Positions 21,001 to 24,000 of a stretch of 64,000 bases of DNA are shown one piece after another (within the stretch, counting starts at the first letter, position 1; every line of letters begins with the position of its first letter). The stretch is from a virus. Its lineage: Duplodnaviria; Heunggongvirae; Uroviricota; Caudoviricetes. The stretch lies in the IMG/VR virus record IMGVR_UViG_646311923_000012. One strand, 5' to 3'. A program made the position numbers.

Positions 21001-24000
21001 CCTCGTCTGATGCCGCTCTTGCAACACGTTACGCTGCCGAGTATTTTTGTAAAACATGGACTGCTCCAGGCCTGAACCAGGCAGAAGGATACAAAGCTAT
21101 CTCAGATCTGTCACATCACTATTTTCGTGCAGAAGGCTCTAGCCCTCCCCAATCAATGGCGACAGGTATAAATAAGGTTCGTTGTGATGCAGGAATGAAA
21201 GAGAAACATGTAAACTCACTGGATATATTTACACATAGTTATCCAGAAATTTATGCTGGAGTAGCATTAACACTTGCAGGAGTATGCAGTAAAGATAAAC
21301 AGGCGATGTATAATATTACACAAGAAACCGTCCGTATCCTTCACGAAACTGAAACAAAAGATTGAACATTCTCAATAAAGAGCTGCGCCAAGCAGCACAT
21401 ATTCTGCATTGCAGTAAGATATGCATGCCCAGCCCCCTGTAAACCTATAAATATTTCAAATCACATTGATCATCTTATAGCCATATTTTTTGTGACACCC
21501 TGTTTCAGTGAACATGAAGACACTCACCTTGTTCCTGATATTCATTAGCATCATCCTGATTATTTAACTTCTCTATTCAGGGAAGCCCGTCTGATACAAA
21601 GCTTCTATTTCTCGTTAAATATTCTCCATTCTGGCGCCAAGCCCTATCTATAGCTGATTGAAAACAACTCTAAAAACGCAATAATATCAAATAGTTTATT
21701 CCTACAGCCGATCATTTTGAGTAAAATATTGACGAGAATTTCACAAAAGGTAGATTTCATGCAAACGGATAAATTAGACTATCACATAAAGTTCTTATAA
21801 GGTTATCTATATGATAAATAGCATTAATTCTTTTTTTTCCAGCATTCCTCGCAGTATATCAAGTGTTACGCGTAACAGTAGCTTCACTGCCTCACAGCAC
21901 AAAAGCACACCTAACACGGTAAAAACCAGCTCACCTCTTTCTCCCAGCAACAGTCCTGCCAGTGCAACAACTATTTTTAAGGTAAAAAATTCTTATACGG
22001 AATCAGGACTTCAACGTTCCACATCTTATACTCAGTCAAGTATAGAAAAAAACGCTTTACATCGGCCTCTACCTGATGTGGCCAAACGCCTAGTGCAGCA
22101 TCTTGCAGAGCATGGCATTCAACCAGCCCGGAATATGGCTGAACATATTCCTCCGGCACCTAACTGGCCTGCGCCAACGCCGCCAGTACAAAATGAACAA
22201 TCAAGACCTCTGCCTGATGTGGCTCAGCGTCTGGTGCAGCATCTTGCAGAGCATGGCATTCAACCAGCCCGGAATATGGCTGAACATATTCCTCCGGCAC
22301 CTAACTGGCCTGCGCCAACGCCGCCAGTACAAAATGAACAATCAAGACCTCTGCCTGATGTGGCTCAGCGTCTGATGCAGCATCTTGCAGAGCATGGCAT
22401 TCAACCAGCCCGGAATATGGCTGAACATATTCCTCCGGCACCTAACTGGCCTGCGCCAACGCCGCCGGTACAAAATGAACAATCAAGACCTCTGCCTGAT
22501 GTGGCTCAGCGTCTGATGCAGCATCTTGCAGAGCATGGCATTAATACATCTAAGCGCTCGTGATTATAATATAATTACCTGTATTAGCTCTGACCTGACA
22601 GTTACCGGTTATTTATACAGGTATCTGTCAGATTACATCTAACCAACAAAAAACCGGAGCCGGACTCCGGTTTTTGTGAAGCTGTCGGGTTACTTCATCC
22701 CGCCAATATTTTCCCACGTCCCGTCAGCACGCAGGATTTGCAGCGGTCTTACCACGCACTGTATCTGCTTTTTATCCGCATCCAGTATCACCACCTGCGT
22801 GATTACCCTGTCCTGCTCCGGGATAATGCCATTCTCATCTGACTCCAGGATGTCTGCCGGCCCCAGTCGCAGCTGTGCTGTAAGTAACTCCCCGTTTTCA
22901 CGGTCATCATGCTTTCCGCAACCGCACAGACGCTGCATAAGTTTTTTTAGTATATTCATGTCATTCTCCTGTTCTGCCTGTATCACTGCCCACTTCATCC
23001 AGCCCCTTGACATCCTGCCACGGCCCGTCGCCAAATCTGACCTGCAAATGCTGAAAAAAACCCTGAACCCGTGTGGCATCTTTGGGGTCAAGAAAGGTCA
23101 GTCCGGTGATGAGTGCGCCATCTGTATCCGGGAACCAGCCATTGCTGTTTGTCTCAATAATGCTCGCCGGCCCCAGACGAAAACGGATTTGTGTCTCCCC
23201 CGGGTCGCCCTTCGGTCCCTGAGGTCCGGTTGCCCCCACCGGGCCAGCCGCACCTGTTTCTCCTTTCGGTCCCTGTGGGCCTGCCGGGCCTGCCGCACCG
23301 GTATCTCCCTTTGGACCCTGTGGACCTGCATCTCCCGTCAGACCGGTCTCTCCCCGCTCTCCCCTGTCGCCTTTCGGCCCCTGCGGGCCTGCCGGACCAG
23401 TATCTCCTCTCGGCCCCCTTTCACCGGTTGCCCCTGCCGGGCCGGTGTCGCCACGCTCTCCCTTATCCCCCTTCGGCCCCTGAGGACCCGCGGGACCCGG
23501 TTCCCCCTTTGGCCCGGGAGGCCCCACCACGGTGGGGATTCGGTTTACGGCCTCTTCCGCCGCTATCCTGCTTTGTTCCGCTGACTGTGCGCTTTCTGCT
23601 GACTCCCGGGCTTTTTCTGTTGCGGTCGTTGCATCCCTGGCTGCATTACCGGCTGCACTTTCTGCCGTCTTTCTTGACAATTCAGCTTCTGCTGCACTTT
23701 GTGATGACTCACTGGCTTTTTGAGCGGCCGCAGAGGCCGAGGACGAGGACGCTTCCTCTGACTGCTTTGCAGCGGCTGCACTTTCTGCCGCCTGCCGGGC
23801 TGACTCCGATGCCTCCCCTGCTGAAGTGTCAGCATTTGCAGCGCTCTCTTCTGCCTGACTGGCTGATATGCCGGCATTCCTCGCTGACGTCTCCGCCTCT
23901 CCGGCATTCTTCTTCGCCTCCTCAGCGTGACGCGCCGCTTCTTCCACCATCAGTTCAAAACGACGCAGTGCCTCCGGCCGGACGTCATCCTCCGACATGG

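Follow-up and report, generated by a model that had tools for sequence, protein, structure and literature searches.

A free-standing PfC domain encoded directly downstream of a collagen-like tail fibre gene in lambdoid prophages

The viral DNA stretch analysed here, IMG/VR record IMGVR_UViG_646311923_000012 (Caudoviricetes; 64,000 nucleotides, hereafter the window), carries on its minus strand a small open reading frame (ORF) directly downstream of a side tail fibre gene. Sequence comparison confirms the predicted product of this small ORF as a genuine free-standing copy of the C-terminal knob of the fibre, the PfC domain, and the copy is an old duplicate. We consider it very probable that the small ORF encodes a real, functional protein that is expressed, maintained by selection and linked to the fibre as an accessory; the more specific proposal that it is a dispensable, fibre-specific helper acting on the C-terminal knob is put forward tentatively. 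The gene itself is not new, since Pfam, PHROGs and PGAP already cover it and the literature has discussed it, and the copy in the window is one of thousands. What is new here is the purifying selection on the gene, its invariable coupling to fibres ending in PfC, its location in the slot that tfa occupies in lambda-like phages, and the finding that readings of the gene as a remnant, a recombination cassette or a fusion partner are unlikely.

Similarity of the small ORF to the fibre knob

A previous reading of this DNA, based on the sequence only, had described a 90-residue ORF preceded by a strong ribosome-binding site. Its coordinates hold, and so does the ribosome-binding site, a Shine-Dalgarno AGGAG that can be read from the sequence (Table 1); the protein is 89 residues long, as 90 is the number of codons with the stop included. 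Residues 28-89 match the Pfam family PF06820 (Phage_fiber_C) over the complete model (positions 1-64 of 64; E=5.3e-36, 123.2 bits at a cut-off of 25), i.e. they form a stand-alone PfC domain without a collagen stalk, and the whole protein matches phrog_576 (2.2e-60, positions 1-89 of 89). Nothing besides PF06820 was found in a Pfam/NCBIfam scan of the small ORF, even at E<=1. In particular, the PfN attachment domain is absent according to Pfam, and there is no Pfam match of the Peptidase_S74 type, the intramolecular chaperone domain.

The similarity to the fibre is well above chance. BLASTP aligns residues 29-88 of the small ORF with residues 366-427 of the fibre (37% identity, 61% positives, E=8e-12), and the Smith-Waterman score of 106 compares with 27.2 +/- 3.9 for 2000 shuffled sequences, none of which scored as high (z=20). 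The sequence-only reading had made its proposal depend on a significant pairwise alignment, and the alignment is significant. It had also extended the similarity over the last ~75 residues of the fibre; this is correct for the 64-residue PfC domain, to which the homology is confined, and not for the last 11 residues of the fibre, which lie outside it. At the nucleotide level the two PfC copies are 51% identical when aligned by codons, and the longest exact run they have in common is 11 nt.

The N-terminal 27 residues of the small ORF have no counterpart in the fibre and are predicted to form a short helix followed by a CGCGKH linker. The 'LCGC' motif in this region might suggest a lipoprotein or a signal peptide, a reading that we ruled out: a hydrophobic core is precluded by the charges of K5, K6 and R10. 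Cys14 varies among alleles, being Y or R in some, and this variability argues against a putative obligatory metal site at this position. The frameshift variants of the gene (P0036, P0090, P0018 and L095 3242-3397) are all located in the linker, around residues 14-28, and in P0036 a second shift brings the frame back before the PfC domain. This pattern suggests that the linker sequence may matter little while the PfC part is kept.

Junction with the fibre gene

On the minus strand the junction of the two genes reads AGGAGAATGACATG: the Shine-Dalgarno sequence is embedded in the last codons of the fibre gene, and the fibre stop is separated from the start codon of the small ORF by a single base (Table 1). 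Among 98 distinct sequence contexts that come from other prophages, 93 have this junction, AACAGGAGAATGACATGAA, unchanged, and the start codon and Shine-Dalgarno sequence of the small ORF are invariant in these contexts. By the layout of the junction, the small ORF is translationally coupled to the fibre gene.

The last 11 codons of the fibre gene (22964-22996, minus strand) are nearly without synonymous variation, the synonymous polymorphism (pS) in 58 alleles being 0.013 as compared to 0.12 in the rest of PfC, so the initiation region of the small ORF appears to be constrained at the nucleotide level. This constraint reaches well past the 5-nt Shine-Dalgarno sequence, and perhaps it covers the whole putative ribosome-binding region of the small ORF.

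Past the small ORF lies a terminator-like hairpin accompanied by a T run (predicted RNA fold -27.1 kcal/mol, z=-3.0), and a terminator is annotated at this place in phage 434. Another terminator-like hairpin, likewise annotated in phage 434, lies between the fibre gene and the preceding gene, lom. Since such hairpins bound both ends, the fibre gene and the small ORF form a two-gene unit, and the small ORF is the last gene before the late-operon terminator.

Distribution and linkage to PfC-type fibres

Several named genes turn out to be the same gene as the small ORF, namely Sp5 ORF68 (ECs1229 of E. coli O157:H7 Sakai), 'gp59' of phi24B, CPT_434_24 (gp24) of phage 434 and phrog_576; all are 89 aa long and 93-100% identical, the phage 434 copy being 93% identical to the small ORF of the window. 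The Sp5, phi24B and 434 copies start 1 nt past a collagen-like PfC fibre gene, as in the window. The partner fibres differ, however: Sp5 and phi24B are short-tailed phages in which the gene accompanies a lateral fibre (EPclB type, 645-649 aa), whereas in the window and in phage 434 it goes with a side tail fibre of the lambda-like siphovirus kind (EPclA type, 437 aa). Sp5 ORF68 was described as a PfC-only polypeptide and placed among the non-essential late genes (Mondal et al. 2016, PMC5155283). The Prokaryotic Genome Annotation Pipeline (PGAP) names the product 'phage tail fiber C-terminal domain-containing protein'.

Of 5,426 complete E. coli genomes, 697 (~13%) carry the gene; the median copy number is 11 and the highest is 15, and the carriers are essentially enterohaemorrhagic and enteropathogenic (EHEC/EPEC) lineages. 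It is also present in 296 phage records, mostly of Shiga-toxin (Stx) converting phages. The family is all but confined to E. coli, E. albertii, Shigella and Citrobacter rodentium. A profile search of 1.84 billion representatives gave 93 hits, most of them fragments, which comprise only fibre-type and stand-alone-type sequences. Long profile matches made up of multiple stretches (SprB, CarboxypepD_reg repeat proteins) were discarded as remote homologues because they are driven by repeats. The homologues in Citrobacter rodentium belong to a degraded remnant whose fibre is internally deleted, and are uninformative on function.

Linkage was sampled from 156 fetched loci, 80 of which were reached via the small ORF, while 72 informative ones were reached via the fibre PfC. 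From the side of the small ORF, a fibre-type PfC forms the end of the upstream ORF, and 1 nt separates the two genes, wherever the upstream DNA sufficed, even though the length of the fibre ranges from about 390 to 650 aa. From the side of the fibre, the small ORF is intact and adjacent in 71 of the 72 loci and frameshifted in the last one, L095, i.e. the co-occurrence in related prophages that the sequence-only reading proposed to look for is seen at every fibre-side locus. No fibre ending in a stand-alone-type PfC was found among the 98 distinct contexts. The small ORF thus always travels with a PfC-ending fibre. In the lambda-like phage PhiR29_2 the fibre has the same PfN-type N-terminus and is otherwise different and long, and here Tfa is found in the same position. 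Specifically where the fibre is of the PfC type, the small ORF takes the place of tfa.

Selection on the small ORF

Selection was estimated by the method of Nei and Gojobori (NG86) after removal of frameshifted fibre pseudogenes. The ratio of non-synonymous to synonymous polymorphism (pN/pS) is 0.16 for the whole small ORF, 0.31 for its N-terminal extension and 0.08 for its PfC part, as compared to 0.21 for the PfC of the fibre, values that have to be read with the caveat that the copies are multiple and recombining so that the pairs are not independent. A higher ratio of 0.52 obtained for the fibre with the pseudogenes kept was rejected as inflated by frameshifted fibres. Among 55 distinct DNA alleles of the small ORF, the variable sites fall on codon positions 1, 2 and 3 in the numbers 15, 8 and 26. 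By these measures purifying selection acts on the predicted protein no less strongly than on the fibre's own PfC.

Because of this purifying selection the small ORF does not appear to be a decaying remnant. That it could be left over from fibre-tip exchange had been one of four earlier suggestions, next to an assembly chaperone, a decoy and an alternative tip domain; it is disfavoured by the pN/pS values of the gene and its PfC part, by the invariant start codon and Shine-Dalgarno sequence and by the intact state of the gene at 71 of the 72 fibre-side loci.

Possible role of the small protein

Experimental information comes from related phages. For gradient-purified phi24B virions, part of a supplementary peptide table of a preprint (bioRxiv 10.64898/2026.04.10.717836) gives the peptides ADGTWENIGGMK and VITQVVILDADKK, both unique to the small ORF, with ~3 spectra each, and a C-terminal peptide of the fibre with 47 spectra, so that the small-ORF peptides are ~15-fold lower; the contaminants Lom and Bor are present in the same preparation. 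As far as this part of the table goes, it indicates that the small protein is made, and the trace amounts argue against a stoichiometric 1:1 tip subunit. As to the domain itself, Col-PfC refolds at once after melting at a melting temperature (Tm) of 42 C (PMC3368898), which means that PfC nucleates the collagen helix. By homology to the PfC of the fibre, the small protein probably forms a trimer as well.

We lean, with limited confidence, towards a dispensable helper that is specific for the fibre and acts on its C-terminal knob. The small protein would fold like PfC and form a homotrimer. As its synthesis would directly follow that of the fibre chain, it would meet the fibre while this is still nascent and act in trans on its conserved distal end. 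There it might stabilise or register the knob from which the collagen triple helix zips up, without being indispensable for this process, and it would then mostly dissociate so that only traces remain in virions. The benefit may be felt under natural conditions, for example at gut temperature, close to the Tm of the collagen part, or on natural hosts that bear O-antigen. A conserved partner of this kind fits better than a variable host receptor because the amino-acid variability of the small ORF is low. We also speculate, with considerably less conviction, that the small protein could represent a new kind of fibre accessory protein, a helper or detachable cap derived by duplication from the very domain it acts on, which would template or stack on the trimeric PfC knob and show its effect only under natural conditions.

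A number of observations weigh against the helper. An in-frame deletion of Sp5 ORF68 in K-12 MG1655 leaves plaque formation and lysogenisation in place, while the fibre is essential (PMC5155283). Since K-12 is without these collagen-like genes (PMC3368898), complementation in trans is unlikely in that strain. In addition, PfC alone, Trx-PfC, Col-PfC and the whole fibre are all trimeric as recombinant products of E. coli (Ghosh et al. 2012, PMC3368898), so the fibre needs no obligatory helper and any helper role must be non-essential. Of the 'assembly chaperone' offered by the sequence-only reading, a weak form survives; an essential role is contradicted by the infective deletion phage and by the unaided trimerisation of the recombinant proteins. 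The scans of Pfam and NCBIfam gave no membership of the small ORF in the Tfa family PF02413 or in another known chaperone family, and the label 'tail fiber assembly chaperone' in the phage 434 record appears to be positional and comes without cited evidence. The spectral counts for phi24B are from part of a supplementary table only.

Structure offers no help to the proposal either. The AlphaFold2 model of the small ORF has a helix at residues 3-12 followed by beta strands, at a low confidence (predicted local distance difference test score, pLDDT, 64.6), and that of the fibre PfC has a pLDDT of 47.3, both on shallow alignments; the structure prediction that had been envisaged for both sequences is thus of low confidence. 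Foldseek returned nothing from the PDB at E<=0.001 and a PDB sequence search gave chance matches only, so the predicted models, Foldseek and the PDB sequence search yield no fold assignment. The authors of the phi24B preprint likewise obtained no confident AlphaFold model of the distal domain of the fibre, and cryo-electron microscopy left this domain unresolved (bioRxiv 10.64898/2026.04.10.717836).

Alternative explanations

The small protein could also be a structural part of the fibre, i.e. a distal tip subunit or adaptor whose trimer docks on the knob, for example via its N-terminal helix or the invariant tail of the fibre, and gives or modifies receptor binding, much as T4-type gp38 or the Tfa of Mu and P2 stay on their fibre tips. 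We consider this unlikely. It would agree with the PfC domain shared with the fibre tip, with the coupled translation, which would favour matched amounts, with the unique peptides listed for gradient-purified phi24B virions in the part of the table cited above, and with the unresolved distal domain, which leaves room for an extra subunit. However, the same part of the table puts these peptides ~15-fold below the C-terminal peptide of the fibre and next to the contaminants Lom and Bor, and the gene is dispensable for infection of K-12. Moreover, the PfC part of the small ORF has a lower pN/pS than the PfC of the fibre, and in a receptor-binding tip the reverse would be usual.

Less probable still is a soluble knob: a trimeric PfC freed at lysis would bind the ligand of the fibre or the host surface, either as a decoy that prevents wasteful adsorption to debris or sibling lysogens, or as a competitor of the fibre tips. 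PfC trimerises alone, and the small protein is without PfN and so could not be mounted on the tail like the fibre; the traces in virions, so far as the peptide table was available in part, and the lack of a phenotype in single-step laboratory assays would also suit a free knob. On the other hand, an identity of only 37% to the fibre knob makes a shared ligand specificity doubtful, and the N-terminus with its K5, K6 and R10 is no signal peptide or lipobox. We know of no precedent for a free knob of the decoy type.

According to another proposal the small ORF is not needed as a protein at all. Mondal et al. (PMC5155283) speculated about an intragenomic reservoir for fibre variation, and the gene would then be a silent cassette with spare tip DNA for recombination, or else a functionless leftover of tip exchange. 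Rare chimeras (P0179 and P0064) and partial copies of the small ORF downstream in some loci could be cited in favour. We nevertheless find this explanation improbable, given the codon-level purifying selection, the invariant start and Shine-Dalgarno sequence, and the fibre-type knob carried by every fibre in the 98 distinct contexts. In E. coli, RecA-dependent exchange normally requires at least some 20-30 bp. The longest exact run common to the two copies, which share 51% of their nucleotides, falls short of this, so that a cassette for homologous recombination is disfavoured.

The chimeras and partial copies deserve a short description. P0179 (L164 2697-3246, GCA_005381265.1) comes from one draft genome with a tandem duplication, in which a 92-aa chimera composed of residues 1-40 of the small ORF and the C-terminal half and tail of the fibre PfC lies between the fibre and a normal small ORF. 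In P0064 (L163 4-291, GCA_038404665.1) collagen Gly-X-Y repeats are in frame with a stand-alone-type PfC at the shared 'GPA' motif. This sequence is uninterpretable with respect to a cassette as it is located at the very start of a 3.3-kb draft contig, where a tip-swapped fibre and a truncated or chimeric assembly are indistinguishable. Both are singletons, i.e. rare illegitimate products, and give no sign of a working exchange system. Partial copies of the 3' part of the small ORF (78-91% identity; L052 4954-5100 and 7233-7301, L018 1063-1131) lie amid remnants of effectors and integrases, at a distance of 0.7-3 kb downstream from the intact copy, and resemble traces that earlier recombination has left in the cargo region.

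The least credible explanation is a +1 frameshift near the fibre stop, by which translation would run on into the small ORF and produce an extended fusion fibre with one knob stacked on the other: the small ORF does lie in the +1 frame, which contains no stop over 46 codons upstream in 92 of the 98 contexts, the stop context is UGA-C with a Shine-Dalgarno sequence just upstream, and the phi24B authors put two hypothetical fusions in their mass spectrometry database under the label 'Spike or just gp59?', but 46 open codons are unremarkable by chance ((61/64)^46 ~0.11), at the site ACA-GGA-GAA-UGA-C the Shine-Dalgarno sequence overlaps the last sense (P-site) codon and there is no CUU-U slip site, unlike in prfB (CUU-UGA-C), the independent Shine-Dalgarno sequence and ATG are fully conserved, no frameshift signal was reported by Mondal et al. 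(PMC5155283), and among the phi24B matches listed in the available part of the table there is no junction peptide, while the normal C-terminal peptide of the fibre is abundant. The probability that remains belongs to something outside the explanations listed here.

The fibre gene and its surroundings

The fibre has the EPclA architecture, i.e. PfN, an Ala-rich coiled coil, collagen Gly-X-Y repeats, PfC and an 11-residue tail, and ECs2717 studied by Ghosh et al. (PMC3368898) has the same architecture. It likely starts at the ATG at 24274, which gives 437 aa, the length annotated for the homologue in phage 434; the GTG at 24280 chosen by the ORF finder is two codons upstream. The window shares the gene order J-lom-stf with phage 434 and PhiR29_2, and its tail module is of the lambda-like siphovirus type.

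Table 1. Positions of the small ORF, its expression signals and the neighbouring genes in the window
Feature	Position	Strand	Remarks
Small ORF	22690..22959	-	89 aa + stop; from ORF list and sequence
ATG of small ORF	22959-22957	-	read from sequence
Shine-Dalgarno AGGAG of small ORF	22966..22970	-	within the last codons of the fibre gene, 6 nt before ATG
Fibre stop TGA	22963-22961	-	followed by one spacer base, then ATG
Intrinsic-terminator-like hairpin and T run	22649..22675	-	12-pair stem; 15 nt past the stop of the small ORF
Side tail fibre gene	22961..24274	-	PF08400 1.9e-68, PF01391 2.5e-18, PF06820 2e-36
Fibre PfC domain, paralogue of small ORF	22997..23188	-	Pfam coordinates; residues 365-428 in 439-aa numbering
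Terminator-like hairpin between lom and fibre gene	24291..24312	-	8 pairs, 7 GC; annotated in phage 434 too
lom (Ail/Lom outer-membrane protein)	24339..24938	-	PF06316 2.9e-119; upstream of fibre
J-like central tail fibre / tip attachment protein	25005..28481	-	from ORF list
TccP/EspFU-like type III effector gene	21811..22563	+	PF04806 2.4e-110; convergent

Terminator-like hairpins at 24291-24312 and 24968-24987 on the minus strand flank lom, as annotated in phage 434, and this bracketing is consistent with an independently expressed moron inside the late operon. On the other side, the effector gene converges on the terminator of the fibre unit. It contains several near-identical 47-aa proline-rich EspF repeats, which yield many mirror ORFs on both strands, and the PGAP name at the homologous place is tccP/tccP2. 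This gene is cargo downstream of the fibre unit and no part of it.

Further away, a phage-type tRNA cluster is present in two copies on the minus strand, at 2236-2487 (Arg-tct, Arg-tcg, Met) and 51560-51812 (Arg-tct, Met), with ORF patterns that repeat around them, and an integrase is found at 19658-20677. The window appears to span parts of two side-by-side lambdoid prophages. An acidic ORF of 816 aa (16920-19370, plus strand) adjoins the integrase; only its C-terminal 170 residues match a known domain, that of the Rv2179c-like 3'-5' exoribonuclease (PF16473, 9.4e-66), and its first 630 residues have no Pfam match.

Comparison with other fibre-associated proteins

It is worthwhile to compare the small ORF with other proteins encoded next to fibre genes. 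Lambda Tfa (PF02413, Caudo_TAP) shares with it the position right after stf at the end of the late operon. In other respects the two are different, as the small ORF has no sequence similarity to Tfa and is half its size, and it is homologous to the tip of its own fibre, which Tfa is not. Also, in contrast to Tfa, it is not required for fibre function where this was tested, i.e. in the Sp5 ORF68 deletion (PMC5155283). The PfC of the EPclA and EPclB fibres (PMC3368898) belongs to the same Pfam domain, forms a trimer and renucleates the collagen helix, whereas the small protein is 37% identical to the fibre PfC, has no collagen stalk and carries a 27-residue N-terminal extension of its own.

There are also similarities and differences with respect to more distant systems. 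The T4-type gp38 and the Tfa of Mu and P2 are small proteins that are encoded after the fibre gene and associate with the distal end of the fibre. They are unrelated to the tip sequence of their own fibre and are needed for function or host range, whereas the small protein is at trace level in virions, judging from the part of the phi24B peptide table referred to, and has no phenotype in K-12. In endosialidases and T5 pb1-type proteins, C-terminal chaperone domains (Peptidase_S74) drive fibre trimerisation in cis and are cleaved off; the small ORF, in contrast, is a separate cistron, and the C-terminal peptide of the fibre stays in phi24B virions as far as the same part of the table tells.

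The small ORF accompanies the fibres of Shiga-toxin phages as well as that of the classical phage 434. If the proposal of a helper derived from a paralogue, or that of a detachable tip, is true, the small protein would be a new type in the short list of tail-fibre accessory proteins, and it could be relevant to the spread of Stx phages and to the range of their hosts.

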